A stretch of 64,000 nucleotides of DNA from a virus (lineage: Duplodnaviria; Caudoviricetes): the IMG/VR virus record IMGVR_UViG_3300042935_001404. The stretch is one strand, 5' to 3'. The notes under the pieces were generated by a model that saw nothing but the letters and a program-made list of their open reading frames with translations, had not been told where the DNA came from and searched no databases. How positions within the stretch are numbered: position 1 is the first letter of the stretch; the number at the start of each line of letters is the position of its first letter. The position numbers and the translations under genes are program-made. Positions 11,807 through 62,383 of this stretch are shown here, piece by piece.

Positions 11807-11833
11807 ATGTGCCTTTTTTTACTATATGCCCAA

Positions 11834-27354: not shown

Positions 27355-27605
27355 GAGGTCTTTTTGCTTAGTTCGTACAAGACTTCAACCTTGTTGCACA
27401 ATTCATCCAGTGCTACATTGTTGTGGCGTGATTCAAATATTTCTGCCCAGCGACGTTTGTTTTCAAGTTCTTCAAGTTCTTGTTTTAATTTAGGGTCTTG
27501 GTAGTGCAAGGATTTTGAACTGTTTCCGGGTTGGCGAGCATACACTGTGCGCCCGCCGTCGGGACTTTCAAATATTGTTACTTCAGTTATTTTGCTTACC
27601 ATCAT
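27351..27605 (-). CDS. Conserved hypothetical protein
   Basis: IFESPDGGRTVYAR; late promoter 27613-27620. Confidence 0.65.
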   Translation of the reverse strand: MMVSKITEVTIFESPDGGRTVYARQPGNSSKSLHYQDPKLKQELEELENKRRWAEIFESRHNNVALDELCNKVEVLYELSKKTS

Positions 27606-40524: not shown

Positions 40525-40553
40525 ATAATATAGTATATGCGGTCAAATGTCAA
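40525..40553 (-). promoter_or_regulatory. sigma70 promoter for the gp62-like/ZnF/mini-DnaE operon
   Basis: TTGACA-17 bp-TATTAT; overlapped by the last codons of the 40543-41193 gene. Confidence 0.7.
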
Positions 40554-41193
40554 GTGTTTTTAGTTTTTCTTTTACTTCGGCTGCAAATTGACTTTGCCAG
40601 GCACCGTCGGGAACATGAAACAGCGGCGATTTTGTTTGTAGCTCTAGCGGGTATGTTGCTAAATTCAAATTTAATGCATGCGATTCAAATCTAGAGAATT
40701 GGGTGTTTACTATGTCACTGTTCCGTGTCAACAGTTCAGTGACTGCTATTAACTGTTGATATATACCCATCGAGTACACAAAAGGAATATTCCGATTCTT
40801 TAATACAGACAAAGCGCCAACAATTTGCCAAAATGCACCAAAGTTTTCCCAAACTGGGTTTGTTAACGACTGACGCAAGGTCATTAACAATTTCTGGTCC
40901 TGATTTAGCAGATGCTGGTGTTGATTGGTTATCCACTGTCGATTAACCGCGACATGTGTGTTTTCAAATTCAATCCTGCCTGGGCCAGTGAACCCAATGA
41001 CCACAGCGTCGGGACTGTGCTTTAGGCCGTTAATTAGATCATGTAGTATTATGCCAATGGAATTTCCCGGGTATGCATAATTTATTACTTCATAGTCAGG
41101 CAGCATTTCTGACCAATGTTGGCCTGGAAACTTAGCATCTATAGAAAAAAAGCTGTCTCCGACTATTAACAATTTGGGCCTAGTCACTTCCAC
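40543..41193 (-). CDS. SGNH/GDSL-like protein
   Basis: LLIVGDSF, NYAYPGNS, FTGPGRIE, terminal PLFHV. Confidence 0.6.
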   Translation of the reverse strand: MEVTRPKLLIVGDSFFSIDAKFPGQHWSEMLPDYEVINYAYPGNSIGIILHDLINGLKHSPDAVVIGFTGPGRIEFENTHVAVNRQWITNQHQHLLNQDQKLLMTLRQSLTNPVWENFGAFWQIVGALSVLKNRNIPFVYSMGIYQQLIAVTELLTRNSDIVNTQFSRFESHALNLNLATYPLELQTKSPLFHVPDGAWQSQFAAEVKEKLKTLDI

Positions 41194-42644: not shown

Positions 42645-43455
42645 ATGTTAAATTTCTAAGCTGTTGTGTTGTGGTAGGAAAAAGATCCAACCCATTGCAT
42701 TGTAGTTCAAGGTTGTTCAATCTCAATAGGTGTTGTATGTATGCTTCGTCAAAAATGCTGTACACTGTAATTTCATTATTGTTACCGTCTAAAAGATTAT
42801 GCACATATTGTTCACAACGTAATTGGCTATTGTGAAGTTTTTGTAGTGACAAAAACTTCACATGCTGTTGATGTATTATACTTAAATCAATTGTAAAAGT
42901 CAATTCCAGTTTTGATACAATTTCAGTTAATCGTTCTATGTAATTTTCAAATATGTCTTGGGTAGTTAATTGAGCCACTGAATTTAATTCTTGATATCTT
43001 ATTGGATTGTATGAGGCTTCTAGTAGATCATTGATCCAAAATGAGCACCACTCACGCATGATCCATCTGGGCACAGTTTCATCAAATTTACCATGGTAGT
43101 TCCAATGGGTTGCAAGTTTATACTCAATGTCAGCAGGCTCTAACAGTAACGAGATATACTTAATTAATTTTCTGTGTTGTTGTTTAACAAATTGGTTGTT
43201 AACATAATCTAATCTATGAGAGGTGCAAGGAAGAATAGAAACAATAATATCATCATCCTTGGCGCTTTTAAATGTTTCGATATGTACTTGTGTTATAGTT
43301 GATTTAGCTAATAGATTATCCCAATGCTGATGGCTATTACCGTCGTTGTTAAAAGTAAATTCACCATACGGCTCCTTTCTCAAATTAGTATAATTGTATA
43401 TGCATCTAGCAACATATGTACCGTAGCATCCAGGCGGAAAAATAACATTAATCAT
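42619..43455 (-). CDS. P-loop sulfotransferase-like protein
   Basis: MINVIFPPGCYGTYVARCI N-terminus; AT-rich insert upstream of uvsW. Confidence 0.4.
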   Translation of the reverse strand: MINVIFPPGCYGTYVARCIYNYTNLRKEPYGEFTFNNDGNSHQHWDNLLAKSTITQVHIETFKSAKDDDIIVSILPCTSHRLDYVNNQFVKQQHRKLIKYISLLLEPADIEYKLATHWNYHGKFDETVPRWIMREWCSFWINDLLEASYNPIRYQELNSVAQLTTQDIFENYIERLTEIVSKLELTFTIDLSIIHQQHVKFLSLQKLHNSQLRCEQYVHNLLDGNNNEITVYSIFDEAYIQHLLRLNNLELQCNGLDLFPTTTQQLRNLTYEKMHNTN

Positions 43456-46214: not shown

Positions 46215-46937
46215 TCATTGCCAATGAGTTTGCACTGCCGGGTCTGAGATCTCGTGTGGTTTTGGACTGCCGTGAAATACCAAAATACTGGTGTTGTCAT
46301 CTACCACAGTTCCGGTGTTGGGAGCCCGATACTTGCGTTTTGAAAAATTAAAACCGCCATCCAAGCACTGCCAACGCCAACTTTTAACCCAGTCAGTGTT
46401 AAAAAATCTACGATTCCCAACAGGTATCAATGCCGAAATCAAGTCTTGATCACCTCGATATTTGCTGGTAAATTGGCCAATGTCTTGGCCAATTACTTCT
46501 TTCCACACATGCTGGTAATGTTCAGTATTCCACCACATCACACTGGTGTTTGACACTGTGCAAGTATTTTTCCATAGATACTTGAAATCTCTCACTGCCC
46601 AGAAATGTCGCTGTGGCAGTTGCCAAATCCAATCAATATTTTTTGTAATTACCATGTCCAAATCAAAGTACAATAGCGGACCCGAATGATGTTCTGTATT
46701 GAACAATTGCAGTTTATACCACCAGGATTTTTTAGGTCCTGCCAGCCCCCAATCAATCAAAGCATGTTTGATCATATGGTCTGGAACTGTTCTGTCTGTT
46801 TCTGTGTAAACGTGTAATCTTACTGGACGACTTAGATTCCTACACAACATACTATACAGTCGTTCAACATAGTCCCATGTGTATCCATCGCCGTGTATTA
46901 CGCAAGCACAGTCTAAGGGTTCAGTAGTAGGCATCAT
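46215..46937 (-). CDS. GT-A glycosyltransferase
   Basis: WWYKLQLF, LYFDLD (DxD), GDQD, VFHGSPKP; late-type GGTAAATA 46942-46949. Confidence 0.8.
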   Translation of the reverse strand: MMPTTEPLDCACVIHGDGYTWDYVERLYSMLCRNLSRPVRLHVYTETDRTVPDHMIKHALIDWGLAGPKKSWWYKLQLFNTEHHSGPLLYFDLDMVITKNIDWIWQLPQRHFWAVRDFKYLWKNTCTVSNTSVMWWNTEHYQHVWKEVIGQDIGQFTSKYRGDQDLISALIPVGNRRFFNTDWVKSWRWQCLDGGFNFSKRKYRAPNTGTVVDDNTSILVFHGSPKPHEISDPAVQTHWQ

Positions 46938-46974
46938 TTGATATTTACCGTTATATACACACATAAATATCTTT

Positions 46975-47730
46975 ATGAAAATTGTACTTGTAACCGGTGG
47001 GTTTGATCCCTGCCATTCTGGGCACCTTGCTTACTTCCAATCAGCAAAAAAACTAGGCGATCGACTGGTCGTTGGTCTTAACTCAGACCAGTGGCTCACT
47101 CGTAAAAAGGGACGACCGTTTATGCCCATGAGTGAGAGATTTGCATTGATCAGTGCCTTGAGCATAGTAGACGAAGTTGTAGTTTACAATGATGATGACA
47201 ACAGTAGTTGTGATGCAATTCAACTGGTCAAGCAACGCTATCCTGCTGCCAACATTGTGTTTGCCAATGGCGGTGACCGTACACAAGACAACATTCCAGA
47301 AATGATCTTCGATGACGTGGAGTTTGTGTTTGGTGTGGGTGGCGAAAACAAAATAAACTCCAGTTCGTGGATATTGGAAGAGTGGAAGAAGCCCAAGACG
47401 ACCCGTGCATGGGGCTATTATCGTGTACTACATGAAGTAGGATCTAACACCAAACTCAAAGAACTCACAGTGTCTGCCAAAACTTGTCTTAGCATGCAAC
47501 GACATGATCGGCGTGCGGAGTTTTGGTTTGTGGCCGAAGGCGAAGCCGCAGTGTATACCCTGGACAATTCTAGCGATCACGACCTAGTAGGACATTACGG
47601 AGTGCATGACTATATTTGGATCAAGAAAAATCAATGGCACATGTTGTGTAATGAAACTGATCAACCACTGAAATTAATTGAAATTCAGTTTGGCGACGAT
47701 TGTGTGGAAGAGGACATAGAACGTCGATGA
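46975..47730 (+). CDS. Cytidylyl/nucleotidyltransferase (RfaE/TagD-like) fused to a sugar-isomerase cupin
   Basis: TGGFDPCHSGH (HxGH), FANGGDR, NSSS; RAWGYY...LSMQRH..RAEFW cupin; CATAAATA 46962-46969. Confidence 0.85.
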   Translation: MKIVLVTGGFDPCHSGHLAYFQSAKKLGDRLVVGLNSDQWLTRKKGRPFMPMSERFALISALSIVDEVVVYNDDDNSSCDAIQLVKQRYPAANIVFANGGDRTQDNIPEMIFDDVEFVFGVGGENKINSSSWILEEWKKPKTTRAWGYYRVLHEVGSNTKLKELTVSAKTCLSMQRHDRRAEFWFVAEGEAAVYTLDNSSDHDLVGHYGVHDYIWIKKNQWHMLCNETDQPLKLIEIQFGDDCVEEDIERR

Positions 47731-48413
47731 AAGCCATACCAGTTTATGTTGGATACGATCCAAGAGAAGCCATTGCTTTTCACACCTGTGCCAATTCAAT
47801 CATACGGCATGCATCAAAGCCCGTGGCTATTATTCCTGTGGCCTTGAACTTGTTTCGAGACTACGAAGAAACGCACACAGATGGCAGCAATCACTTTATC
47901 TACACACGATTTCTTGTGCCGCACTTACAGGAATACACAGGATGGGCAATATTCATTGATGGCGACATGATTGTGCGAGATGACATTGTGAAACTATGGG
48001 AATTGCAAAACCCTTATAACGACGTTATGGTAGTCAAACATGACTACAAAACTCGGATGCCTGTAAAATATCTAGGAGCACGAAATGAAGACTATCCTCG
48101 AAAAAATTGGAGTAGTGTTATTCTGTGGAATTGTAATAGCTTTCCTAACAGGCGACTTACTCCTGAGTTCATTCAAAAATCCACAGGTAGTGAACTCCAC
48201 CGCTTCTCGTGGTTAGAAGACGAACGAATTGGCGAGTTGCCAAAAGAGTGGAACTGGTTGCCTGATGAATACGGCATTAATAAGGATGCCAAGCTGTTAC
48301 ACTACACGCTAGGCACACCTTGCTTTCAAGAGTTCGCTGACACGCCACAAGGTGATGAGTGGCATAGAGAACGTATTCTAACTGAATACTGCTTACAAAG
48401 GAACATACTATGA
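47727..48413 (+). CDS. GT8-like glycosyltransferase
   Basis: VGYDPRE, FIYTRFLVP, FIDGD (DxD), YPRKNWSS, LHYTLGTP. Confidence 0.82.
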   Translation: MKAIPVYVGYDPREAIAFHTCANSIIRHASKPVAIIPVALNLFRDYEETHTDGSNHFIYTRFLVPHLQEYTGWAIFIDGDMIVRDDIVKLWELQNPYNDVMVVKHDYKTRMPVKYLGARNEDYPRKNWSSVILWNCNSFPNRRLTPEFIQKSTGSELHRFSWLEDERIGELPKEWNWLPDEYGINKDAKLLHYTLGTPCFQEFADTPQGDEWHRERILTEYCLQRNIL

Positions 48414-49513
48414 TTTTACCAGTGGCCCTGGTGGACCGTTGGCCCAGTGACGAGTATAAAATACAACACGCAACAATTGAATCTGCACTCAAACACAGTG
48501 TTGCAGATCTATTGAAACTTCGTGCTGAAGTTGAACTGTTAAAACAACTTGAACACGAATGGGGGCTAAGTCCTATCCCTGAAGAATTGCTAACTAAAGA
48601 TATTAGAGGATTTATCAAGAGGAACGGTGGCGACTCAATGGGTCAAAGATTTATTGATTATGTTGTAAATCAAGATGCCCAATTTGATCGTTGTTTAAAA
48701 TTTACAGACTACCCGGCAATGGTTATGGCTGCATATCCCAGCAGTAAATTTATTGATAAAAATAGATTCCGCACCGAAATGGAAGAGATTGTCAAAGATC
48801 CTGTGCTGATACGCGGCATCAGTTCTGGTAAAATAGCCAAGATTGTGAGAGAACATGATCAAGACTATTACTTTATCGAAACAGGATATCTTGGCAATTA
48901 TCGATGTGACAACAATCAAACCGGCAGAAAAGTGTATCATCGCATTGTAAAAAATTCCATGCAACATTCAACTATCATGGATGTGCCCGATGACCGATGG
49001 CAACAACTGGTAAAATTCAATCCAAACTTGGAATACAAAGGCTGGAAGCGCACTGGATCAAAAATTCTAGTGGTGTTGCCCACTAATAAACCATTTCAAT
49101 ATTATGGACACAATCGTGAGAAATGGATTGAAAAAGTTGAACGCACTATTAAAAAACACAGTGACAGAGAGATTGTCTGGCGTGAAAAGGCCAGTCGTGG
49201 GGAACGTACAAATGCCACTATATACGATGCCTTAGATGATGACATTTATGCTCTGGTCACTTACAACAGTATTGCAACTGTGGAAGCAATACAGCACGGA
49301 ATTCCAGCCTTTGGACTGGCACCCACTGCGGCAGATCCGGTATGCAGTAATGATCTTTCACAAATTGAAAATCCCGTAATGCCCAATGAAGAAATTGTTT
49401 ACAGATGGTTATGCTCGATTGCTTACAGTCAATTTAGTCTAGATGAAATTTTAACAGGCCAAGCCTGGCAAATGGTATTAGAAAATGCACAACGCCCAAC
49501 CCTTGATTGTTAA
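48410..49513 (+). CDS. Capsule-synthesis (KpsS/KpsC-like) GT-B protein, paralog 1
   Basis: IETGYLG, YHRIVKN, LVTYNSIATVEAIQHGIPAF, WL..IAYSQFS..E. Confidence 0.6.
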   Translation: MILPVALVDRWPSDEYKIQHATIESALKHSVADLLKLRAEVELLKQLEHEWGLSPIPEELLTKDIRGFIKRNGGDSMGQRFIDYVVNQDAQFDRCLKFTDYPAMVMAAYPSSKFIDKNRFRTEMEEIVKDPVLIRGISSGKIAKIVREHDQDYYFIETGYLGNYRCDNNQTGRKVYHRIVKNSMQHSTIMDVPDDRWQQLVKFNPNLEYKGWKRTGSKILVVLPTNKPFQYYGHNREKWIEKVERTIKKHSDREIVWREKASRGERTNATIYDALDDDIYALVTYNSIATVEAIQHGIPAFGLAPTAADPVCSNDLSQIENPVMPNEEIVYRWLCSIAYSQFSLDEILTGQAWQMVLENAQRPTLDC

Positions 49514-50441
49514 AAGTTATCTAAGAAGTTTGCCCAGGCATATCAACGGCAACGAAAAAATCAATGCATTGACTTATTTTGCAGAGGGTGCAGCCAAGTG
49601 TGGCGATTCAGCATCAGTAACTGAGTCACAAACATACGAAACATGTGATGTTGGTGCCATTATTGGCAATGCGTTTGATGCAAATCCCAGCAAGGTCAGA
49701 CTGCCGCATTATCAAGTTCGCAAAATGGTAATGGATACACAACACAGTCTTCATCGTTACTGGTTAAGCATAGACAGCAACGTATTCATTTACAAAGATG
49801 CTGCCAATCCACACAAGTATCTACGCTACAGTTTTAATGGTGTGTTTCCTGCCACAGGCATATACTGTAACGAAACACCCGGTGAAGAAAACTGGAACAA
49901 CATGCGACGTGACTACAATATGGATCTAAAACCCTGGAGGTCCAGTGGCAATCACATATTGATCTGCTTGCAACGACCGCTGGGGTGGAGTATGCGTGGC
50001 GCGGATTTAATGAAGTGGCTTAAGAGAACATTAGGCAAGATTAGAGAACACAGTGATCGTCCAATCTTAATAAGATGGCATCCAGGTGACTGGAAGGCAT
50101 TTCCCAATTATAAATCCACGCTAGTTAAGTTTGGCGTTACAGTGAGCCCACAAAACCGGCACATAACCGAAGACTTGGTCAATTGCTGGGCACTGGTATG
50201 CCATAATTCAACTCCCAGTGCAGTGGCACCAATTGAAGGAATTCCAGCATTTATCACAGATGAGCCTGCATACAGCCAGGGCGGTGATATTGCTAACACT
50301 GACCTGAGTCAGATAGAAAATCCTCACATGCCTAACCGTGAGCAATGGATTAGGAAACTAGCACAATGTCACTGGAGTTTTGAAGATGTCAGATCAGGCC
50401 GTTGCTGGAGTCACATGCGCAACTGGGTCAAAGTCCCGTAA
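49485..50441 (+). CDS. Capsule-synthesis (KpsS/KpsC-like) GT-B protein, paralog 2
   Basis: IRWHPGD, LVCHNSTPSAVAPIEGIPAF, W...LAQCHWS.E. Confidence 0.6.
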   Translation: MHNAQPLIVKSYLRSLPRHINGNEKINALTYFAEGAAKCGDSASVTESQTYETCDVGAIIGNAFDANPSKVRLPHYQVRKMVMDTQHSLHRYWLSIDSNVFIYKDAANPHKYLRYSFNGVFPATGIYCNETPGEENWNNMRRDYNMDLKPWRSSGNHILICLQRPLGWSMRGADLMKWLKRTLGKIREHSDRPILIRWHPGDWKAFPNYKSTLVKFGVTVSPQNRHITEDLVNCWALVCHNSTPSAVAPIEGIPAFITDEPAYSQGGDIANTDLSQIENPHMPNREQWIRKLAQCHWSFEDVRSGRCWSHMRNWVKVP

Positions 50442-51224
50442 TTCATTTAACTGTGTGAGATAATCAGGAATGGCAAAATCAAATTCATTTCTAGTGTCTA
50501 CCAAGATCTTGTTTACATCTTTGGGGCCGCTGGTCCTGACCACATTCTTTCCTAGATTGTAAACTTCGTTGATCAAGCACAATAACTCATATTTGTTAAT
50601 GTTTACTGAGTTGTTGACCACATGATATATGCCAGCAACACTGGGGTTGCGTACATATCGATCAATACATTTGGCCAACTGCAATGTGGTGATCCCATTC
50701 CACCAGGCATTGTCCCAACCAGGTATTGCAGTTTCAGGATTTCTTCTAACCCAATCAAGTAATCCAGTACCAGATTTGAGTTCGGGACCGATAATGCTCA
50801 TACGAAATGTAACGTCTTTGCTGTTGTCAACTTCGCCTAGGCTTTTACTGCGACCATACACATTTGTTTCGGTGTGCGTGTGTTTTTCTTTGTAGTGACC
50901 CACAGCACCATCAAACACACAATCAGTGCTTAGATGAATCAGTCGAGTGTGAGTGTCTTTTAATCGGTATTCGATGTAGTGTGGCAACCAGGAATTGATT
51001 ATGCTGGCACGGTCGGGACGTTGCAGGCACGGCTGTACCAATAGACCAATACAGTTTACAACAAAATCAGTGTTGAGTTGATCAAAAAATTCTGCAACCA
51101 TAGCGGGATTTTCAACATCTAATCGGGTACGGTACACTGCATCAACTTCGTGCCCTTGCTGACGAAGATAACTGACCACAACATGTCCAGCCATGCCGTT
51201 GGAACCTAGTACTGTGATTTTCAT
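50394..51224 (-). CDS. RmlD-like NAD(P)H-dependent 4-keto sugar reductase (WbvR/QnlA-type)
   Basis: GSNGMAG, VNCIG, HLSTDCVFDG, YGRSK (YxxxK). Confidence 0.88.
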   Translation of the reverse strand: MKITVLGSNGMAGHVVVSYLRQQGHEVDAVYRTRLDVENPAMVAEFFDQLNTDFVVNCIGLLVQPCLQRPDRASIINSWLPHYIEYRLKDTHTRLIHLSTDCVFDGAVGHYKEKHTHTETNVYGRSKSLGEVDNSKDVTFRMSIIGPELKSGTGLLDWVRRNPETAIPGWDNAWWNGITTLQLAKCIDRYVRNPSVAGIYHVVNNSVNINKYELLCLINEVYNLGKNVVRTSGPKDVNKILVDTRNEFDFAIPDYLTQLNELRDFDPVAHVTPATA

Positions 51225-52201
51225 AAGAATCCTCCCTTGACCAACATGTCTTTGATTTGATCATCGTTCATTAATACTGTTTGAGAACTGAACTCAGAGT
51301 GGGGAAATGCTGGTAACTGTTTGTATTTGTTCTTAAGTTCTGCAGAACACTTGGTAGGAAGTATCACATAGTAATTTTCATCAAAGCAACGACTCAGCAC
51401 AGCTTCGTGTTTGCTGATCAACATTTCGTCTAGTTTCTCCCCGGGCTTGCTGCCAATTTCTTTTATGTTCACAGTGCCATACTTGTGCATGAGCACACGG
51501 GCCACATCTCGAATGTAACAAGCCGGCATGTTCATAACAAATGTTTCACCACCGATGCTGGTTTCTGCGGCTTTGAACAACAACATGATGGCTTCCTCTA
51601 GCGTCAAGAAGAACCGAGTCATTTGCAAATCAGTAATGGTAATAGGACCACCTGCTTTGATCTGTTCAATAAAGTACGGAATCACGCTGCCGTTGGAACC
51701 CATGACATTGCCGCCACGAATGCAAACAAACTTTGTGTGTGTGCTTAGATCATTACCTTGTATGATTAACTTTTCACCTACACTTTTGGTCATGCCATAC
51801 AGGTTCAACGGCTCAACGGCTTTGTCGGTACTGACATCAATTACTTTGCTGACATGATTTTCTACAGCGGCGTTGACAATGTTGGTGGTTCCTGTGATGT
51901 TTGTTTTGATAGCTTCCTGTGGGTGATCTTCGCAGATGGGCACATGTTTAAGTGCGGCCAGATGAAATATAACGTCAACGCCCTTGGTTGCAAAACGAAC
52001 AGCATCATAATCTCGAACGTCTCCTACTACAAACTTCAATCTAGAGTCATGAAACTGTCGTTGCATCAACACTTGTTGAAGTTCGCCACGGCTAAAACAT
52101 ATAATTTCTGTGGGATTATAATTTGCCAACAACATACGTATTAACGTTTGTCCCCAACTGCCGGTGGCACCCGATACAAATATTCTTTTTCCGTTAAACA
52201 T
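51221..52201 (-). CDS. UDP-GlcNAc 4,6-dehydratase/epimerase (CapE/WbjB/FnlA/PseB family)
   Basis: GATGSWG, GDVRD, HLAALKHVP, STDKAVEP.NLYGMTK, RGGNVMGSNGSV, MTRF, PGEKLDE. Confidence 0.92.
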   Translation of the reverse strand: MFNGKRIFVSGATGSWGQTLIRMLLANYNPTEIICFSRGELQQVLMQRQFHDSRLKFVVGDVRDYDAVRFATKGVDVIFHLAALKHVPICEDHPQEAIKTNITGTTNIVNAAVENHVSKVIDVSTDKAVEPLNLYGMTKSVGEKLIIQGNDLSTHTKFVCIRGGNVMGSNGSVIPYFIEQIKAGGPITITDLQMTRFFLTLEEAIMLLFKAAETSIGGETFVMNMPACYIRDVARVLMHKYGTVNIKEIGSKPGEKLDEMLISKHEAVLSRCFDENYYVILPTKCSAELKNKYKQLPAFPHSEFSSQTVLMNDDQIKDMLVKGGFL

Positions 52202-53270
52202 GATTTCCTAATAAAATGTTTACCACTGTGTCACTAACGTTGGTTCTAGCATATTCAGCAGGTACTGTCCATGCACGATCAACCTGTTTCATAGATTGGT
52301 AACCAGCAACAATATTATCAACTGCTAGACCAGTTACAATGTTTGATCCACACCAAACAGTTTCTGGGCGTTCAGTAGTGGCACGTATAGTTATAGTGGG
52401 TTTATAGAACAAACACATTTCTTCTTGTACAGTTCCTGAATCACTGATGGCCATGTAACTATTCTTTTCTAACTTTACAAAATCAAAAAACCCCATTGGT
52501 TCAGTTATTTTTATACAGTCGCTTACTGATATATCTAATTCGCGCAAACGCTGACGTGTTCGTGGATGACAACTAAACACAATTGGGCGATCTTGTGCTA
52601 TGATTTCCATGGCACTAAAAATACTAGCCAATCTCTCCGGACTATCTACGTTCTCTGCTCTGTGTGAGGTGGCGATAATGTACTGGTTAGATTTTAATTT
52701 TAATTTTTCTAAAATATTGCTCTCATCAATTTGATCACAGTAGTAATCTAATACTTCTCTAATGGGATTGCCAGTTACAAACACACGATTGTTTTGTGCA
52801 CCTTCTCGTAACAAATTTTGTCTACTGAGTTCAGTATAAGGCAAATTGATAGTGCTAATACTGTCTATTAATCTACGATTCTTTTCTTCTGGTACTGACA
52901 TATCGTAACAACGATTGCCGGCTTCCATGTGATACACAGGAACTCCCATGCGTTCACAAACTATAGCACTCAATCCTGAATTGGTATCACCCAACACTAA
53001 CACCGCATCAGGTTGAAATTCTGTAATGTACTGCTCTACACCAATCATAGTGGCAGCCAACTGCTGTCCAATTGTACCACGACTGTTTAGTACACAATCG
53101 GGTTGTCGCAATCCCAACTGATCAAAGAATATATCATTGAGTGTGGCATCGTAATTTTGCCCAGTATGTAATACTCTATGTTCACTGACTTGATCTAGCT
53201 TGGGTATAATTCTAGCCAAGCGAATTATTTCCGGGCGTGTTCCTAAGATGGTTAATATCTTACGCTTCAT
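52194..53270 (-). CDS. Non-hydrolysing UDP-HexNAc 2-epimerase (CapG/WbjD/WbvD subtype)
   Basis: GTRPEIIRL, HTGQNYD, GDTNS, HMEAGNRC, VPEE.NR, LPYTE.SR, SDSGTVQEE. Confidence 0.92.
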   Translation of the reverse strand: MKRKILTILGTRPEIIRLARIIPKLDQVSEHRVLHTGQNYDATLNDIFFDQLGLRQPDCVLNSRGTIGQQLAATMIGVEQYITEFQPDAVLVLGDTNSGLSAIVCERMGVPVYHMEAGNRCYDMSVPEEKNRRLIDSISTINLPYTELSRQNLLREGAQNNRVFVTGNPIREVLDYYCDQIDESNILEKLKLKSNQYIIATSHRAENVDSPERLASIFSAMEIIAQDRPIVFSCHPRTRQRLRELDISVSDCIKITEPMGFFDFVKLEKNSYMAISDSGTVQEEMCLFYKPTITIRATTERPETVWCGSNIVTGLAVDNIVAGYQSMKQVDRAWTVPAEYARTNVSDTVVNILLGNHV

Positions 53271-53787
53271 AATACCCTACATAATATTTCTCTAGGCTGG
53301 GCAGTTTAACCTCGACCCAGCCTGCAAAGTCATCATGTGTCCATGAACTTTTGTGTATATCAAATTGATTACCATGACTCCAAATTCGTTCGTTTTCGAT
53401 ATTGTGTGTATTGTCTGTCCAAATTTCAGGTAGTGGGGTAAGTAAAAATATTTTTTTATTGACTATTTTCTTGCAATCTTCCAATAGTCGAACGCCTGCA
53501 TCTTTGTTTAAGTGTTCGATAAAATCTATCATTAAAATATAATCCCAACGCTCGGTGGTAATTTCAAAGATAGGAGTAGTCTCAACATTGGCCACAATGT
53601 CTGGTTCAACCCAATCCCATGCATCAATTGTTAACACACGACACTGTTGTTCTAGCAACGGCGATGAGTAGGCTTTGGGGCCGCACCCTATATCTAATAC
53701 TGTGCTGCCAGTGGCTACACTTTCATTAATAAACTGTGACAATAAATCATTGCGACTGGCTCTTTTTCCTTTGATTTTAAATTTCAT
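53260..53787 (-). CDS. Class I SAM-dependent methyltransferase
   Basis: VLDIGCG, IDA, DFIEHL. Confidence 0.82.
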   Translation of the reverse strand: MKFKIKGKRASRNDLLSQFINESVATGSTVLDIGCGPKAYSSPLLEQQCRVLTIDAWDWVEPDIVANVETTPIFEITTERWDYILMIDFIEHLNKDAGVRLLEDCKKIVNKKIFLLTPLPEIWTDNTHNIENERIWSHGNQFDIHKSSWTHDDFAGWVEVKLPSLEKYYVGYYEA

Positions 53788-54545
53788 TGTATACTTTCTT
53801 TATTTGGTGCATGTATTGTTCCATCAACAGTGATGTTAAAATACAAATCTTTATTATTTTGATCAGGCTCAATGTTGTCAGGATGCCCGTAACTCTTATG
53901 GTGATATTGATGTATAACCATTGGTGTTGCTACAAATTCAAGATTGCACACTTGTTTGATTCTATATAGTATTTCTGCATCGTCCCAGTTATGTCCTGTT
54001 GCATATCTTTCATCAAATCCGTTGACTTTGATTAGATTATTTCTGGTAATGGCATTGCAAAAGTGAAATGCCACTGGACGCTCAATTTCGTGATTATACC
54101 AACGTGCTTTTTTTGATGTTGACACTGTGGGAATTGATCCTTGCTGATGCAATACTGTAACATCTTGTTTAGTACATGCCCAGCAATGAAAACTAAGATA
54201 TGTTTCATCAGTAAGATTCTTAGCAACATAATTCAACACATCTCCCATATGGCAACATTCAGGGTTTTGTATCACAATCATATCTCCGCGACTGGCACGC
54301 AGTCCTACATTATATGGAATACATGGATTACAATAGTCTTTTTTTGTTACTTTCTCTTTCATACGAATAATATTAAACTGTAATTGTGGAAACTCATTGG
54401 GTATACCATCTAAACTATTATCAGCATCACTGAAGTCATCTACAATGACCACTTCTACATTTTTGTACGCACTATTTGCAATAGTCTGCAATGTGAATTT
54501 TAGTTGAGGTAACCTATTATAATAGGCCATCACTATTGATATCAT
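53784..54545 (-). CDS. GT2 glycosyltransferase
   Basis: ISIVMAYYNR, VIVDDFS, YNVGL, GFDERY, DAE. Confidence 0.88.
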   Translation of the reverse strand: MISIVMAYYNRLPQLKFTLQTIANSAYKNVEVVIVDDFSDADNSLDGIPNEFPQLQFNIIRMKEKVTKKDYCNPCIPYNVGLRASRGDMIVIQNPECCHMGDVLNYVAKNLTDETYLSFHCWACTKQDVTVLHQQGSIPTVSTSKKARWYNHEIERPVAFHFCNAITRNNLIKVNGFDERYATGHNWDDAEILYRIKQVCNLEFVATPMVIHQYHHKSYGHPDNIEPDQNNKDLYFNITVDGTIHAPNKESIQ

Positions 54546-55141
54546 ATAAACCTTATGTGCGACGTGGCGTATTTTGCCCGTTGATTGATTATTTCCACAA
54601 TTTCAAAATTAGACTCTACCAATGGTGTTCTTTCCTTGGCAAAGATTCGTAGATCCATTACAACAACAGTATTGGCGTGACTGTGCTTGAGTATCAACTC
54701 ACGATATGTGCTTGCTGGATAATGAAACCCGCAACTGACCCAACTAGTAATGACATCAAACTTAATATCCTCAGAGATATTGATATTATTACAGTCTACC
54801 AGATGATAATTTTGTGTGTTTAATTCATCTAGTTTGTTTTGTAAAAAATCCAACTTGTAATAAAATGCAAAATTTTTAGAATCAGTGGTGTAACGTGCCT
54901 GTTGTTGTGTTCGGGCATCTTGAGCATTATCGTCGAAATCGCCATCTAGTAGATACAATTCAGTGCCGTACTTTTTATTAAACAAACGACTTTCCCAAGC
55001 AAGTCCGCATCCAATGTCTAATATTTTTTTAGGAGGCGTTCCTAGATAGGTATCTAATAGATCAAAGTTTTCTTGTTTATGTTGCTGATACACATCAGTG
55101 AACCATTCGTCATTGATCCAATCTTTTTGATACAATATCAT
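54542..55141 (-). CDS. Class I SAM-dependent methyltransferase
   Basis: ILDIGCGLAW, LLDGD, FDVITSWVSCGFHYP. Confidence 0.78.
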   Translation of the reverse strand: MILYQKDWINDEWFTDVYQQHKQENFDLLDTYLGTPPKKILDIGCGLAWESRLFNKKYGTELYLLDGDFDDNAQDARTQQQARYTTDSKNFAFYYKLDFLQNKLDELNTQNYHLVDCNNINISEDIKFDVITSWVSCGFHYPASTYRELILKHSHANTVVVMDLRIFAKERTPLVESNFEIVEIINQRAKYATSHIRFI

Positions 55142-55926
55142 TGGTACTTTCTCTGTTCTTGTTTGAATACATCAAGTTCTTTGCGTTTGCCTTTGGCAGA
55201 CCATATGGCGCTTTCAGTCCGCATGGCCCAGTCAATATAACTCATGGGTAACAGACCTTTTTGATATTTTGGCACCAGTTGATCTAGTAGAACTTGATCT
55301 AAAAACCAATATAGATCGTGTTTACCGATACTGGCACGTAAACTGTTTGCGTACTCTTGTAAAAATTCATGTGCACCAGCAGTACCATTGAACAACACAG
55401 CACCGGCCAAGTGGGTGCCATCTTTGGGTTTTTCGTACAGATAAAAATCCTTAGTGCCCAATTGATCATTGAATTGTCCGCGCACTAGCCCGTCAACATC
55501 AATACTCAAGCATCGTTGTCCTGGTTGTAGTAATTCAGCCAGTCTGACAAATCTAGTACAGGCATAGTAAGTTTGATGAATCAGTATTGATAGGTCTTGG
55601 CGGCCACGTGTTTGTCCTTTTTTAAACATTTGTCTCTGTCGATCGTTTTCAAATTGGGTTCTGGTCATCCAGTAGTCAGTTGTATGTTGAAACTCATTCT
55701 CACTGGGCTGTTCATAAGTGCAAGTTACACCTGTGCGGCTTTGACAAAAATCAATCTGATCGGGCCTAGGGTTGTATATGTGTATGTGTACTCCGTATTC
55801 TGGAGTATTGGCCAGTATACTGTTGATCAACGGCCGGGCATGCAGGTCAAAATACACTGAGTCTGCGGCAGCATAGATAAAGAATTTATTTTGATTTAAC
55901 GTTCCGTTAAGTTGGGGCAATATCAT
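55138..55926 (-). CDS. Nucleotide-diphospho-sugar transferase (GT-A)
   Basis: YACTRF, SIDVDG (DxD), WFLDQ, IWSAKG; late-type ACTAAATA 55934-55941. Confidence 0.7.
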   Translation of the reverse strand: MILPQLNGTLNQNKFFIYAAADSVYFDLHARPLINSILANTPEYGVHIHIYNPRPDQIDFCQSRTGVTCTYEQPSENEFQHTTDYWMTRTQFENDRQRQMFKKGQTRGRQDLSILIHQTYYACTRFVRLAELLQPGQRCLSIDVDGLVRGQFNDQLGTKDFYLYEKPKDGTHLAGAVLFNGTAGAHEFLQEYANSLRASIGKHDLYWFLDQVLLDQLVPKYQKGLLPMSYIDWAMRTESAIWSAKGKRKELDVFKQEQRKYQ

Positions 55927-55970
55927 AGTCAGATATTTAGTGAGGGAAAACACAGCCTATAACTAATACT

Positions 55971-56804
55971 ATGAGAGTAAGTATTTTTGATCAGTATGGT
56001 GCGCTTAATAGTCCGCCGGTATTTGCGGCTGTACGTGCAGGGCTTGACAGTCTTGGCATCAAGCACAACAACATGGACAGTTCAGCAGATGTTGCTGTTA
56101 TCTGGAGCCAACTATGGCACGGACGAATGAAGCACAATCAAGGCGTATGGGGCGCATTCCGTAATAGCAATCGTCCTGTCGTTGTAGTTGAAGTGGGCAT
56201 GCTACGTCGTGGCGGCACTTGGAAATTGGGTGTTAACGGAACTGGTAACAATGCATACTATGGTGACGAGTTGATTCCAGGCCGGGCGGCGCAGTTGAGA
56301 CTAGAAACCCAACCCTGGTCCAATGCTGGTTACAACATTGTGATTGCCGCACAACGATCAGACAGTGAACAGTGGGCAGGACAGCCGCCCACTGTAGCTT
56401 GGTTAACCGAAACTGCTAACACCATTAAAAAATACACAGACAGACCTATTGTTATACGTCCGCATCCTAGACAGCGTATCAGTAATATTCCTGGTTGTGT
56501 TATTGAGATGCCGCGGCCCATCCAAGGAACATATGATAGTTTTGATTATGATCGATGTTTGTCAACAGCATGGGCTGTGGTCAATCACAACAGTGGTCCG
56601 GGCTCACTGGCTGTATTAAACGGAGTTCCAGCATTTGTACACGCTAGTAGTTTGGCAGCACCTGTTGGCAATACAGATTTATCCGCAATCAACAATCCGT
56701 CAAGGCCAGACCGAACTGCATGGCTAGAGCGACTGGCACACACAGAATGGTACACAGAGGAAATTGCCTCGGGCCTGCCGCTCAAACGTTTATTGTTGAC
56801 CTAA
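55971..56804 (+). CDS. Capsule-synthesis (KpsS/KpsC-like) GT-B protein, paralog 3
   Basis: VEVGML, IRPHPR, VVNHNSGPGSLAVLNGVPAF, WLERLAHTEW..EE. Confidence 0.62.
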   Translation: MRVSIFDQYGALNSPPVFAAVRAGLDSLGIKHNNMDSSADVAVIWSQLWHGRMKHNQGVWGAFRNSNRPVVVVEVGMLRRGGTWKLGVNGTGNNAYYGDELIPGRAAQLRLETQPWSNAGYNIVIAAQRSDSEQWAGQPPTVAWLTETANTIKKYTDRPIVIRPHPRQRISNIPGCVIEMPRPIQGTYDSFDYDRCLSTAWAVVNHNSGPGSLAVLNGVPAFVHASSLAAPVGNTDLSAINNPSRPDRTAWLERLAHTEWYTEEIASGLPLKRLLLT

Positions 56805-57548
56805 CCAAGACAAACTCTTGTCAATCCAGGCCAGTATAAGATCTTGTTGTCTTACATGCCCGTAGCGATTTATACTTCCTACCGCAGTTTCCGGCAGTAA
56901 GTTTTTATCTGCCAACTCATACCATGTAGTGGTTCTTGGATCCATTGGAGCATGTTCACTCTTATAAGCAATCACATGTATAAATTCGTCGTCTGGGTGT
57001 TTTAAAAAGAACCCTGAATTACAATCCCAGCCATTGACGGCCAGCATGTGCATTAAACTCACCACAGTGTGATGATAATAACATCCATTTGGTTGCACAA
57101 ATGCCAGTTGACGTATATCCATGTTGGTAGTTTGCGGAACTGCCATGATCAACATGCCGCCATCCTCGGCAATGGTGTTCCATTTTGCCAATGTCGACAA
57201 TGGATTGATACAGTATTGAAATGCATCGTGGCACCATAGCACATCAAATTTTGACTTGCCAGGCAGATTATCTGTATTTTCAAAATCTATTTTTTGATAC
57301 ACAATGTTTGAATATTTTTTAACCACAGCAGGTGTAGCACCTGTGTCTATGCCTGTGCAACGAATATTCAGAGGTATTGGGGCGTCATCTCGAGTTGTTC
57401 TAGTCGCCCACCATTCTAGGTCTTGTCCTGTGCCACATCCCAAATCAACCAGTGTGCCAATGCTTTCCATAAAGTCATCATACTCAAACAGTGTGTTGAG
57501 TGTTTGTAAACTGTGTGCATGACTTTCGTCATCGTTTCTAAATGTCAT
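56790..57548 (-). CDS. Class I SAM-dependent methyltransferase
   Basis: LVDLGCGTG, FDVLWCHDAFQY, GGML; coupled to uvsY. Confidence 0.82.
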   Translation of the reverse strand: MTFRNDDESHAHSLQTLNTLFEYDDFMESIGTLVDLGCGTGQDLEWWATRTTRDDAPIPLNIRCTGIDTGATPAVVKKYSNIVYQKIDFENTDNLPGKSKFDVLWCHDAFQYCINPLSTLAKWNTIAEDGGMLIMAVPQTTNMDIRQLAFVQPNGCYYHHTVVSLMHMLAVNGWDCNSGFFLKHPDDEFIHVIAYKSEHAPMDPRTTTWYELADKNLLPETAVGSINRYGHVRQQDLILAWIDKSLSWLGQQ

Positions 57549-57997
57549 AACTGTATATCTTCCATGCCGGCTGCTCGCAGTCTAACCACATGTCCCAACA
57601 TGAAGTTTTTACTTTCCATTGCTTTCATAATGCCCAAAAATCGATTGCGTAACAGTGCAACTTCGTTGATAATGGTTTCAAAATCAATAACTTCATCTTC
57701 ACCATCCACATACTTTTCAGCATCTCGACTGGTCAGCGCACGAGCATAGCCTTCTAAATACTTTTGAAAATGCCGTCGTCGAATCTTACGCAGTTGTATG
57801 TTAAGGAAGTTCAGCACTGCTTCAATCTCTTGTAGTTGATTAAAGCGATGCTCGGTCATTCCCGGAAGTGCTGTGATATTTCGTTCAACCAGGCCACCAA
57901 TGGCACAGTCACGCCGTGCAGATACAAGTTCATTTTCGTAATGAGCAATAAAGTCTGGAATGGCGCTGAGATCAGCAACAACGCGGTTATACCACAT
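57545..57997 (-). CDS. uvsY: Recombination mediator UvsY
   Basis: FNQLQEIEA, KYLEGY.RALTSRDAEKYVDGE, LRAAGMED. Confidence 0.88.
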   Translation of the reverse strand: MWYNRVVADLSAIPDFIAHYENELVSARRDCAIGGLVERNITALPGMTEHRFNQLQEIEAVLNFLNIQLRKIRRRHFQKYLEGYARALTSRDAEKYVDGEDEVIDFETIINEVALLRNRFLGIMKAMESKNFMLGHVVRLRAAGMEDIQL

Positions 57998-58263
57998 TAG
58001 TTTTCCCAGTCATCGTCTTGGTCGTGGTCTTCTTCCTCGGGTTCTTCGTCTTCGACGTAATCTTTATCATTGTCAAGATACGCAGTTAAAGCTGCCTTAA
58101 CATCGCGATCTCCTGTAAAGGCATCTCGAATATCCTCTGCATCACTGTCATTGTCCATTAAAATTTGTACTAGAGTTTCTGCCGCTTCGGCACGATCTAC
58201 TGTGTTTATGTAGCGTTTAAGTTCTCCCCAAATTTCTTTGGTTAATTTTACATCAATGGTCAT
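57997..58263 (-). CDS. Conserved acidic protein upstream of uvsY
   Basis: 88 aa with acidic tail, TAATG coupling. Confidence 0.7.
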   Translation of the reverse strand: MTIDVKLTKEIWGELKRYINTVDRAEAAETLVQILMDNDSDAEDIRDAFTGDRDVKAALTAYLDNDKDYVEDEEPEEEDHDQDDDWEN

Positions 58264-58585
58264 TTTGTTTCCTTTTATCTAATTTTTCCGTATAAAGATC
58301 AGATGCACATGCAGTACAGCTTTCTTTCCTGCATATTGTATACTCGGTTAAAAACTTAAAATTTTCATCAAACAGATTTCCTAAATTGTCGTTCTTACAG
58401 GTACCTGCGTAGACTGAAAAATCAACATCTATATAGATACTTGTAACTCCAGCGTTACAAAGCCAACCTTTCCAATGGTGCAAATCTTTATCATACAATT
58501 GATTGGCAGATATTTTAACCTCGCTGCCGTCTTTCAATTCTACTATAGCACTGCAATGAATATCCTCAGTTAGTGTAGTATTCAT
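58253..58585 (-). CDS. Stand-alone SPASM/twitch-like Fe-S domain
   Basis: CNAG..IYID....YAGTC...LGN...C...C..C; ATGA overlap with the radical SAM core gene. Confidence 0.7.
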   Translation of the reverse strand: MNTTLTEDIHCSAIVELKDGSEVKISANQLYDKDLHHWKGWLCNAGVTSIYIDVDFSVYAGTCKNDNLGNLFDENFKFLTEYTICRKESCTACASDLYTEKLDKRKQNDH

Positions 58586-59232
58586 GAAAAGTTCATTTGG
58601 TTAGTAATCTTTATCGGGAATTGATTCTTTCCTTGTCTATAATCCTTGATTGGATGTGTATAGCTAACAATTCCGTGTTTTTCTAAAAATGTTTTGTATT
58701 GCTCATTACGAGCTCGATGCCATGATTCATCCATGATATTGACTGATACTAGACATTTATGACTTTGTGCAAACTGGTGTAGATTTAATACTAGATTAAA
58801 AAACTTTTTTTCTTTCATAAATTCACTATGTGTAGAAAATGTAATCCAATCACAATAATCCATCATTTCCTTATAGTATGCTAGACTAGCTGTGCCATTG
58901 GTAGTGACTCCAACATTCCCTAGGTCGTGCGCAAAGCACTCATGCAACCATTTTAAAAAAGGAAGAAAATTTTTATTTAAAGTAAGTTCACCCCCTACAA
59001 ATGCCAAATTATATTTGATATTTTTCCTAGGGCTAGCTGATATAATTCGATTCCACGCCGCTTGCAATTTCTCTAATGAATAATCTTTAGATGTTTTATC
59101 ATGCCATTGATCTGGACAATAACTACAATCAAAATTACACCTTGTTCCAACTAGCCAATGGATTGTAATACCCGGTGCATACTCACGTATCCGAACAATG
59201 GGATTACTGTCAGTTACTACAATCGATTGCAT
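58582..59232 (-). CDS. Radical SAM core domain (no C-terminal SPASM)
   Basis: GTRCNFDCSYC, FVGGELT, TTNGT, FSTHSE. Confidence 0.88.
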   Translation of the reverse strand: MQSIVVTDSNPIVRIREYAPGITIHWLVGTRCNFDCSYCPDQWHDKTSKDYSLEKLQAAWNRIISASPRKNIKYNLAFVGGELTLNKNFLPFLKWLHECFAHDLGNVGVTTNGTASLAYYKEMMDYCDWITFSTHSEFMKEKKFFNLVLNLHQFAQSHKCLVSVNIMDESWHRARNEQYKTFLEKHGIVSYTHPIKDYRQGKNQFPIKITNQMNFS

Positions 59233-62244: not shown

Positions 62245-62360
62245 TAAGTTGCCTTTCTAGTGTTATAAAATGTTTTCTAAGTTGCCTGTGATGCTAATGA
62301 AAAAAGCGTGTCACTGTTGTAGTGTACACGCTTTTGTTGTCAGCGTCAATGATATTTATG
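62245..62360 (-). promoter_or_regulatory. gp32 leader: late promoter, hairpin and 10-nt direct repeat
   Basis: CATAAATA 62353-62360; AAAAGCGTGT/ACACGCTTTT hairpin 62302-62335; AGGCAACTTA at 62278-62287 and 62245-62254. Confidence 0.7.
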
Positions 62361-62383
62361 ACGCATTTGTTCTAATGACTATT

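Follow-up and report, generated by a model that had tools for sequence, protein, structure and literature searches.

A glycosylation island with a fixed core, a swappable cassette and a predicted rare-sugar pathway in a lake jumbo phage

The window analysed here is a 64,000-nucleotide stretch of viral DNA (IMG/VR record IMGVR_UViG_3300042935_001404) in which positions 46215-57548 are filled by 14 tightly packed open reading frames (ORFs), an island of genes that would together build a methylated rare-sugar glycan. Phage-encoded clusters for glycan synthesis are already known as a kind. What is new is a conserved core that carries a swappable cassette, together with three members of a large uncharacterised family that share the fold of 3-deoxy-D-manno-oct-2-ulosonate (Kdo) transferases without their canonical nucleophile. 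Also new, as far as can be read from the genes, are what appears to be a pathway of the N-acetyl-L-rhamnosamine/N-acetyl-L-quinovosamine (L-RhaNAc/L-QuiNAc) type in a bacteriophage and a set of conserved late promoters that are predicted to be leaderless.

Gene content of the island

The 14 genes are as follows (GT, glycosyltransferase; NT, nucleotidyltransferase; SAM, S-adenosylmethionine; aa, amino acids).

46215-46937, minus strand: GT-A-like glycosyltransferase of phrog_1962 with a DxD motif (PHROG E 2.5e-20; D92-L-D94 invariant in 17 homologs), a single-gene unit
46975-47730, plus strand: HIGH (HxGH) nucleotidyltransferase fused to a cupin of the phosphomannose-isomerase type (NT-cupin; phrog_7878), first gene of a four-gene operon
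47727-48413, plus strand: GT8 retaining GT-A glycosyltransferase (PF01501, 2.7e-7; phrog_28018, 4e-37; invariant DGD motif)
48410-49513, plus strand: Kdo-transferase-fold paralog of 367 aa, placed by paralogy and alignment columns
49485-50441, plus strand: Kdo-transferase-fold paralog of 318 aa, placed by paralogy, with Gln and R-x-HP kept
50394-51224, minus strand: RmlD-type 4-reductase of 276 aa, WbvR/Mg535-like, last gene of a seven-gene minus-strand operon
51221-52201, minus strand: UDP-GlcNAc inverting 4,6-dehydratase/5-epimerase of 326 aa, PseB/WbvB/Mg534 type (PF02719, 2e-91)
52194-53270, minus strand: non-hydrolysing UDP-HexNAc 2-epimerase of 358 aa, WecB/WbvD/Mg536 type (PF02350, 3e-90; TIGR00236)
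53260-53787, minus strand: SAM methyltransferase of 175 aa (PF13489, 28.3 bits against a cut-off of 27)
53784-54545, minus strand: GT2 inverting GT-A glycosyltransferase (PF00535, 1.8e-11)
54542-55141, minus strand: probable SAM methyltransferase of 199 aa (PF13489, 24.3 bits, below the cut-off; only 4 related loci have the gene)
55138-55926, minus strand: probable GT-A glycosyltransferase, GT8/Nucleotid_trans-like (D143-V-D145, within IDVDG, invariant in 28 homologs), first gene of the minus-strand operon
55971-56804, plus strand: Kdo-transferase-fold paralog of 277 aa, modelled with AlphaFold2 (AF2) and searched with Foldseek; no promoter box of its own in the window
56790-57548, minus strand: SAM methyltransferase of 252 aa (PF13847, PF08241, PF08242; 4-nt overlap with uvsY)

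Pfam and NCBIfam gave no match for five of the 14 proteins. The first-pass annotation, made from the letters alone, had named three SAM methyltransferases, and family searches found all three, with 54542-55141 below the Pfam cut-off. The same searches bore out its HxGH nucleotidyltransferase-cupin fusion and its trio of dehydratase (PF02719), reductase (RmlD-type, PF04321) and 2-epimerase (WecB-type, above the NCBIfam cut-off). It had also counted four GT-A enzymes; GT8, GT2 and the phrog_1962 protein with its DLD motif stand, and the fourth, 55138-55926, is only probable. This protein has no Pfam match, its ESM Atlas neighbours carry PF01501 (GT8) or PF03407 (Nucleotid_trans), and a profile search aimed at distant relatives brought up nothing beyond close homologs, none with a Pfam label. 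When the families of 55138-55926, GT8 and phrog_1962 were compared by hhalign, the DxD regions were aligned at a probability below 7%, which gives no support for kinship.

The NT-cupin fusion matches PF01467 at E 7.8e-15 (55.7 bits against a cut-off of 21) and PF01050 at E 6.5e-18, and its N-terminus reads GGFDPCHSGH, which is the HxGH signature on a PF01467 fold. It also matches domain II of RfaE (heptose-1-phosphate adenylyltransferase) at E 3.6e-22, and its nearest solved relatives are ethanolamine-phosphate, glycerol-3-phosphate and RfaE-like cytidylyltransferases. One speculative role for the fusion is to isomerise and activate a manno-configured sugar, for example heptose; an alternative, equally speculative, is that its product is a CDP-linked donor for the Kdo-fold enzymes. 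The ATG of the GT8 gene overlaps the NT-cupin stop codon as ATGA. The phrog_1962 gene probably starts at the ATG at 46937 or 46934 and not at 46964. At the other end of the island, the 252-aa methyltransferase gene shares 4 nt with the end of uvsY, a neighbour that it also has in relatives; its expression is presumably tied to the recombination genes and not to the boxed island units described below.

All 14 proteins are soluble, and none has a hydrophobic segment. Family and hydrophobic-segment searches among these 14 proteins revealed no initiating phosphoglycosyl transferase, flippase, polymerase or exporter.

A fixed core around a swappable cassette

Large ORFs of the window encode a class Ia ribonucleotide reductase, DNA ligase, DnaB-type helicase, primase, UvsW-type helicase, UvsX, UvsY and a gp32-like single-stranded-DNA-binding protein (SSB), and tail-type proteins are present as well. 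The UvsX is 60-67% identical to those of Sinorhizobium phage Phosso, Vibrio phage 2.275.O, Agrobacterium phage Atu_ph07, Pectobacterium phage CBB and Cronobacter phage GAP32. Its identity to UvsX of the Atu_ph07/CBB/GAP32-type phages therefore places the window in a jumbo myovirus of the Rak2/Atu_ph07 type, which is group 2.2 of Iyer et al. (PMC7824862); the phage is an uncultured freshwater member of that type. A near-DNA search with the island gave no match in 50,697 phage records, with no cultured phage close in DNA, and near-identical DNA was found in lake water, in at least 19 metagenomes that date from 2017 to 2024. Genome-wide tests were run on G001, a complete relative of 337,119 bp with terminal repeats that lacks the rare-sugar cassette. 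The 'moraphage' of PMC12619734 belongs to a different lineage.

Vibrio phage 2.275.O lacks the island and has uvsX, uvsY, a hypothetical gene and the helicase gene side by side. In the window uvsY is separated from the helicase module by the island and a few small genes; the island is therefore an insertion. The cultured Rak2-like phages have no homolog of the Kdo-fold paralogs. A synteny search across related large phages had been suggested as a check: the island is kept at the uvsY/helicase site in at least 50 metagenomic loci and is missing from the cultured 2.275.O. Metagenomes hold hundreds of homologs at 75-97% identity, some of them on contigs of 300-341 kb, in addition to 49 IMG/VR loci.

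Mapping all 14 proteins on the longer related loci separated a fixed core from a variable centre. Every relative has the NT-cupin fusion, the GT8 enzyme, the three Kdo-fold proteins and two further DxD transferases. Their order is also fixed and runs NT-cupin, GT8, 367-aa and 318-aa paralogs, a slot, and then the probable GT-A divergent from the 277-aa paralog, with the phrog_1962 transferase in addition. The central slot exists in at least four versions.

Slot version 1: the six genes of the window (reductase, dehydratase, epimerase, methyltransferase, GT2, methyltransferase)
Slot version 2: the version 1 genes with extra GT-D-like and Gly_transf_sug genes, or with an extra methyltransferase
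Slot version 3: methyltransferase, methyltransferase, GT25, methyltransferase
Slot version 4: a single GT2-like gene

By analogy, conserved flanks around an exchangeable centre resemble the layout of bacterial surface-polysaccharide loci and recall the clade-specific glycogene clusters of Megavirinae. Among relatives the core block occurs in two orientations relative to uvsY. The inverted unit is the block from NT-cupin to the 277-aa paralog (one orientation in L002, L018 and L030, the other in L005, L019 and L026), and its break points lie at the promoter boxes (46940-46971 and 55932-55970).

Three enzymes predicted to make L-RhaNAc and L-QuiNAc donors

The rare-sugar genes of the cassette are adjacent, with overlaps of 4-8 nt. 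The dehydratase falls below the equivalog cut-offs of both PseB (1.8e-96) and FnlA (1.3e-73) and is therefore an exact ortholog of neither. Its PDB matches include FlaA1 (3e-73) and Mg534 (4TQG, 3e-42), the nearest structures being FlaA1/PseB, an Acinetobacter dehydratase/5-epimerase, CapE and Megavirus Mg534, and the translation has STDKA and YGMTK and thus the catalytic TDK and YxxxK residues. No real counterpart of this dehydratase was found in the 50,697 phage records. The reductase matches PF04321 only (2.2e-25), stays below the TIGR01214 cut-off and has RmlD enzymes as its best solved relatives; the WbcJ/FnlB-type model gives no match, and at 276 aa the protein is short and single-domain. 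It is probably also a 3-epimerase. The 2-epimerase scores 259 bits against TIGR00236, whose cut-off is 210, and only 75 bits against the hydrolysing NeuC model.

With 326, 276 and 358 aa the three proteins are close in size to Megavirus Mg534, Mg535 and Mg536 (323, 270 and 370 aa). Because the trio has the architecture of Mg534/Mg535/Mg536, we predict that it makes UDP-L-RhaNAc and UDP-L-QuiNAc from UDP-GlcNAc. The Megavirus enzymes make these two sugars, Mg536 shares about 50% identity with WbvD of Vibrio cholerae O37, and the products end on the virion fibrils with 4-OMe-L-RhaNAc (PMC9614988). Family searches and the size match thus uphold the earlier proposal that the island has a rare-sugar pathway of its own.

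Two other pathways were considered and rejected. In the N-acetyl-L-fucosamine (L-FucNAc) route (CapEFG/FnlABC), the product is reached through a two-domain reductase of about 370 aa (CapF/FnlB/WbjC); the island reductase is of the short RmlD type, and the dehydratase keeps YxxxK. The pseudaminic acid route has five further enzymes, and genes of the PseC/H/G/I/F types are absent, as is PF02348 from G001.

The system had also been called autonomous. It is phage-encoded and largely self-contained, but that word overstates the case, since the host must supply UDP-GlcNAc, any CMP-ulosonic acid and most of the other donors. A KdsB/NeuA-type synthetase (PF02348) is missing from the complete relative G001, and any donor of the CMP-beta-Kdo type would therefore be host-derived.

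Three paralogs with a Kdo-transferase-like fold

The proteins at 48410-49513, 49485-50441 and 55971-56804 are all paralogous (blastp 1e-15 to 1e-25). The profile built from them matched 4130 representatives of 50%-identity clusters at E<=0.001 and 2640 at E<=1e-10, so the family is very large; judged by ESM Atlas it is mostly viral. The AF2 model of 55971-56804, built from a 72-sequence alignment, has a mean confidence (pLDDT) of 97.2. When this model was searched against the PDB by Foldseek, ranks 1-25 were all occupied by WbbB (GT99), KpsC (GT107) and KrkA (GT140), at E 6e-8 to 9e-5 and a TM score of about 0.5, which places the protein in the modified GT-B fold. The T4 beta-glucosyltransferase appeared only at rank 49 (E 7e-3). 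The profile of the paralog family gave weak matches to WbbB and KpsC among PDB sequences (E 0.14-0.39), aligned exactly on R-x-HP. As these sequence-profile matches are weak, the link to Kdo transferases rests on the structural search.

Residues conserved across the 72 family members are Asp40, Arg105, Gln128, Trp144, Arg163-x-His165-Pro166, Ser208, Gly218-x-Pro220, Arg248 and Glu264. The R163-x-H165-P166 motif is found in 67 of the 72 and aligns to RAHPGS of WbbB and KPHP of KpsC. In the work of Ovchinnikova et al. (2016) the C-terminal domain reportedly binds the CMP moiety through this His-Pro motif. It is kept in 49485-50441 and 55971-56804, and 48410-49513 reads REKAS instead. Gln128 is kept in 69 of 72 members, and the position four residues further on is Ser in 35, Gly in 19 and Asp in 14 of the 72. 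In GT99, GT107 and GT140 this is the nucleophilic Asp of the QXXXD motif and is absolutely conserved (PMC12887879). The corresponding stretches of the window paralogs read QRSDS, QRPLG and PTNKP, none of which has Asp at that position in a loop alignment made by sequence only. The 367-aa paralog lacks both the Gln and the His-Pro motif and may be non-catalytic. None of the three matches PF05159 (Capsule_synth) even at E 10; at E 1e-3 only two of the 72 family members do, and one Atlas neighbour cluster carries PF05159.

The first-pass annotation had described these proteins as KpsS/KpsC-like GT-B enzymes. The likeness is real at the level of the fold, as the AF2 model and Foldseek show, but it does not extend to family membership, with the defining Asp absent and PF05159 out of reach. 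The paralogs are best seen as a separate, mostly viral family with a GT99/GT107/GT140-like fold. Given the retained HP motif and Gln, the latter carboxylate-binding, they possibly still use a CMP-linked acidic sugar, by a different catalytic mechanism.

Family members also occur in other phages. In Caulobacter phage CcrBL9 (L056, 7372-11861) one lies directly after the tail-fibre genes, and in MW202713, a 42.7-kb podovirus, one stands with a TibC-like transferase (of the protein-heptosylating type) just upstream of the terminase, portal and capsid genes. Pelagibacter phage Mosig (L057, 4925-10759) and CcrBL9 (7372-11861) have small clusters that combine a Kdo-fold homolog with methyltransferases and glycosyltransferases, and the Mosig cluster has a sulfotransferase as well. 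The Mosig and CcrBL9 lineages are unrelated, and all of these genes are annotated as hypothetical.

Island operons start at a late-promoter-like box

The island is divided into five transcription units.

Unit 1: 46937 to 46215, minus strand, a single gene
Unit 2: 46975 to 50441, plus strand, four genes
Unit 3: 55926 to 50394, minus strand, seven genes with overlaps of 4-11 nt
Unit 4: 55971 to 56804, plus strand, no box
Unit 5: the 252-aa methyltransferase, minus strand, coupled to uvsY

The first-pass annotation had placed TAAATA boxes ahead of three units, and they were found there, at 46942-46947 (minus strand), 46964-46969 (plus strand) and 55934-55939 (minus strand). They belong to two features.

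46940-46971: divergent promoter region with two TAAATATC boxes, 46940-46947 (minus strand) and 46964-46971 (plus strand)
55932-55939, minus strand: TAAATATC box, 5 nt (TAAATA: 7 nt) before the ATG at 55926

Written out, the island boxes read CATAAATA, GGTAAATA and ACTAAATA. Ahead of the phrog_1962 glycosyltransferase, TAAATA lies 4-7 nt upstream of the start at ATG 46937 or 46934. The TAAATATC form is enriched in the window, with nine copies found against 2.0 expected, a number reached in none of 100 shuffles, and TAAATA-N4-7-ATG is an enriched form as well. Nine of the 33 TAAATA sites in the window have the ATG of an ORF of at least 60 aa within 12 nt, compared with 0-12% for hexamers of the same composition. 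The spacing between box and ATG was then compared among relatives.

NT-cupin gene: TAAATA-N5-ATG, kept in 24 of 26 distinct upstream regions whose flanks are otherwise unalignable
Probable GT-A gene (55138-55926): TAAATA-N7-ATG, kept in 22 of 23 distinct regions
277-aa paralog gene: mostly TAAATA-N9-ATG, in 14 of 17 distinct regions, not in the window
Reductase gene (internal): no box in any of 19 distinct regions
318-aa paralog gene (internal): no box in any of 33 distinct regions
uvsY-coupled 252-aa methyltransferase gene: no box in any of 18 distinct regions

A single palindromic box, TAAATATTTA, is common to both genes of the divergent pair in relatives; the window has a broken palindrome there, and its 277-aa paralog is left without a box.

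The same arrangement recurs across G001, where 38 of 164 TAAATA sites (23%) precede an ATG-initiated ORF at N3-10, mostly N4, N5 and N7, compared with 3-8% for control hexamers. The G001 portal gene has TAAATA-N7-ATG, and the boxed set further includes two virion structural proteins, a baseplate wedge protein and several homing endonucleases. G001 also encodes a homolog of T4 gp55 (272100-272414, E 2.2e-7, 31% identity), and sigma factors and gp33 are reported for group 2 jumbo phages (PMC7824862). In the window itself a BppU-like tail gene and a pectate-lyase tailspike gene are preceded by a TAAATA box, in agreement with the earlier statement that tail genes share the element. Boxed ORFs of the window, with TAAATA 4, 5 or 7 nt ahead of the ATG, include 2832-4370, 24042-24935, 27351-27605, 36790-37899 and 37968-38345. 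The DNA ligase gene has a TAAATA box (8275-8282) immediately before its ATG (N1), an unexpected case of a boxed replication gene.

Because the spacing from box to ATG is conserved, the portal gene shares it and G001 has a gp55 homolog, it is well supported by inference that the island operons start at an element behaving as a T4-type late promoter. In T4 the late octamer, TATAAATA, is centred near -10 with no -35 element; the window has just two copies of this full form, which is no enrichment, and it is the TAAATA core that is conserved. Boxed genes lack a Shine-Dalgarno sequence and other window genes have one. With the T4 late octamer spanning about -13 to -6, transcription that begins 5-6 nt after the box would start at the ATG or just ahead of it and yield a leaderless or near-leaderless mRNA. 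This spacing would imply a whole class of leaderless or near-leaderless late mRNAs in the window and in G001.

What the glycan may be attached to

In our preferred model, the island would be the cytoplasmic glycan-assembly line of the lake jumbo phage, transcribed, presumably late, from gp55-type promoters into leaderless or nearly leaderless mRNAs. The fixed core would lay down a conserved inner oligosaccharide from host donors and add one sugar or polyol phosphate activated by the NT-cupin fusion, and the swappable cassette would supply the outer, strain-specific part. In the lake phage the trio would provide UDP-L-RhaNAc/UDP-L-QuiNAc, with a GT2 enzyme and O-methyltransferases beside it in the cassette, and the glycan would most likely be joined, ahead of assembly, to a structural protein that the phage makes. 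Which sugars are built, in what order, how late and on which acceptor is inferred.

Since relatives swap the middle of the island, a protein of the phage's own particle is the most likely to be coated with a variable methylated rare-sugar chain, and we give a virion protein an even chance of being the acceptor. Such an acceptor fits the late promoter class and the soluble enzymes, and it fits the position of Kdo-fold family members beside the tail-fibre genes of CcrBL9 and the terminase, portal and capsid genes of MW202713. Parallels would be found in Megavirus, whose fibril glycans hold methylated L-RhaNAc/L-QuiNAc, and in mycobacteriophages with their virion glycans. In the mycobacteriophages Che8, Corndog and Myrna, phage transferases are described as modifying the phages' own capsid and tail-tube proteins (Freeman et al. 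2023, as cited in PMC12619734), and glycoproteins have been reported in the related jumbo phage XacN1. G001 encodes, about 6 kb downstream of its major capsid gene, a 1785-aa protein with tandem Thr/Ser/Gly-rich repeats (GVITGTSTSVTGTQTAAST) at 299038-304395 on the plus strand (L072-L073); this repeat protein is a candidate acceptor for O-glycosylation.

Several observations count against a virion acceptor made late. The island lies in the replication and recombination region and not in the structural module, and all solved enzymes with the Kdo-transferase fold act on lipid-linked glycans rather than on proteins. The boxed set of G001 also contains DNA ligase and radical SAM genes, and a box is thus not proof of a structural role. 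Metatranscriptome contigs that touch the island are 170-385 nt long at 90-100% identity; they are undirected, may contain DNA and carry no start sites.

The same lipid-linked relatives point instead to the host envelope, where the enzymes might act on undecaprenyl-diphosphate-linked O-antigen, on the core of lipopolysaccharide (LPS) or on the lysophosphatidylglycerol primer of capsule, and host exporters would display an altered glycan that blocks superinfection or the trapping of progeny on debris. WbbB, KpsC and KrkA, which comprise every solved relative of the paralogs, work on such substrates (PMC12887879), and GT8, GT25 and GT2 are families of the LPS type. Iyer et al. (2021) read similar jumbo-phage clusters as capsule or LPS modification that prevents superinfection (PMC7824862), and serotype-like cassette swapping is typical of surface antigens. 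However, a promoter class common to the portal gene leaves little time for export before lysis, and the island proteins include no membrane-anchored or export component and no hydrophobic segment. Known seroconversion systems are found in temperate phages, whereas the lake lineage is T4-like and lytic. Overall we regard remodelling of the host envelope as rather unlikely.

As nothing in the island specifies an acceptor, the glycan could also be placed on a host protein such as flagellin, pilin or an adhesin, or could form a free or lipid-bound glycoconjugate or a glycosylated small molecule for host takeover or competition. The island has no enzymes that form or tailor a small-molecule scaffold, and its conservation as a late-class module in a large clade of phages is more in keeping with a structural role; an acceptor of this sort is improbable.

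Least probable of all is hypermodification of DNA, in which an oligosaccharide on a modified base would block restriction, as in T4, RB69 and YerA41. The position of the island between uvsY and the helicase genes is suggestive of it, phage DNA transferases can add Kdo, heptose or HexNAc, with some clusters combining a cytidylyltransferase and a GT-B enzyme (bioRxiv 10.1101/2023.12.21.572611), and YerA41 carries an oligosaccharide-like substitution of about 1 kDa on thymidine (PMC9023294). Late timing had been used as an argument against modified DNA; this argument is weak, and a better one is that G001 lacks every known acceptor-base pathway, which weakens the DNA reading. G001 has neither a ThyA-family hydroxymethylase or 5-hydroxycytosine (5hoC) synthase (PF00303) nor a C5 methyltransferase (PF00145), with positive controls for both, and it gave no TET/JBP match (PF12851) in a search whose control was silent everywhere. 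It encodes ThyX for ordinary dTMP, although G001 is itself without the rare-sugar cassette. Family searches of the window's own island likewise found no acceptor-base gene (ThyA homolog, C5 methyltransferase or 5mYOX/TET). Known pathways usually cluster their transferases with acceptor-base genes, and the T4 beta-glucosyltransferase is a distant structural match at best.

Beyond the acceptor itself, the virion-protein model can be extended to a wider picture, which we put forward tentatively and think doubtful in its entirety. Lake jumbo phages would carry a surface glycan like that of an O-antigen or capsule locus, with a conserved inner part made by an unrecognised Kdo-fold family without the Asp nucleophile, a hypervariable outer part set by the cassette (here methylated L-RhaNAc/L-QuiNAc), co-occurring 'serotypes' and expression from leaderless late mRNAs.

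Other features of the window

Family searches of the neighbouring genes 42619-43455 and 40543-41193 gave no support for a sulfotransferase-like or SGNH-like identity. Between uvsX and uvsY (57997-59232) the window has a 216-aa radical SAM gene and ORFs of 110 and 88 aa, an arrangement common to only two fetched loci; most relatives (for example L002, 4787-6276) have an ORF of 81-84 aa with a single radical SAM gene, 411-414 aa long. The loop of a perfect 6-bp hairpin (GCGTCA/TGACGC) at about 62345-62370 on the minus strand, some 110 nt upstream of the gp32-like SSB gene, contains TAAATATCAT.

Implications and relation to known systems

If the glycan is on the particle, virion glycosylation would extend from actinophages and giant eukaryotic viruses to abundant lake jumbo phages of the Gram-negative type, and the glycan variation, with cassettes swapped inside a fixed core, would be unusual for phages. 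A function would also be found for a very large, mostly viral Kdo-fold family (more than 4000 50%-identity clusters) that Pfam has missed. The boxes offer a clean comparative case for gp55-type promoters that would produce leaderless mRNAs, the trio, being compact, is a candidate where enzymes for UDP-L-RhaNAc/L-QuiNAc are sought, and phage micro-diversity could be tracked with the variable slot as a marker.

Several known systems resemble the island in part. Like DNA hypermodification systems (the glucosylated hydroxymethylcytosine of T4, the arabinosyl-5hoC of RB69 and DLP3, and 5mYOX-linked systems), it combines several phage transferases with a nucleotide-sugar pathway in a replication-region context; those systems always include a ThyA homolog, or a C5 methyltransferase with 5mYOX, along with dCTPase and kinase genes, none of which was found in the island or in G001. 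The 'capsular polysaccharide modification' clusters of Iyer et al. (2021) likewise hold epimerases and dehydratases of the short-chain dehydrogenase/reductase type, cupin isomerases, HIGH nucleotidyltransferases and several transferase families, and are polymorphic from one related phage to another. They belong mainly to group 2.1 cyanophages and are read as host-surface modification, and no promoter class, Kdo-fold family or L-RhaNAc/QuiNAc trio is reported for them (PMC7824862).

With WbbB, KpsC, KpsS and KrkA the phage paralogs share a reduced GT-B architecture, and two of the three keep R-x-HP and the Gln of QXXXD. Unlike WbbB, KpsC and KrkA, they lack the nucleophilic Asp and fall outside PF05159, and one has neither the Gln nor the HP motif. 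The mycobacteriophage systems, as far as they are described in PMC12619734, resemble the island in having phage-encoded transferases, some with methyltransferases, that act on the phages' own virion proteins. In that description they differ in being sets of two to four actinophage genes that lack both a nucleotide-sugar pathway and Kdo-fold enzymes, and in having a demonstrated glycan.

The fibril cluster of Megavirus chilensis (Mg534-Mg539) has a size-matched, virus-encoded trio that is likewise clustered with glycosyltransferases (PMC9614988). Megavirus is a nucleocytoviricot with a eukaryotic host and, unlike the lake phage, has neither Kdo-transferase-fold enzymes nor the HIGH-nucleotidyltransferase/cupin fusion. 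Clusters of Megavirus and other Megavirinae place methylated RhaNAc on virions, with sugar sets that differ between clades (PMC9614988). In the lake phage, unlike in Megavirus, the core stays fixed while close relatives swap the cassette within it.

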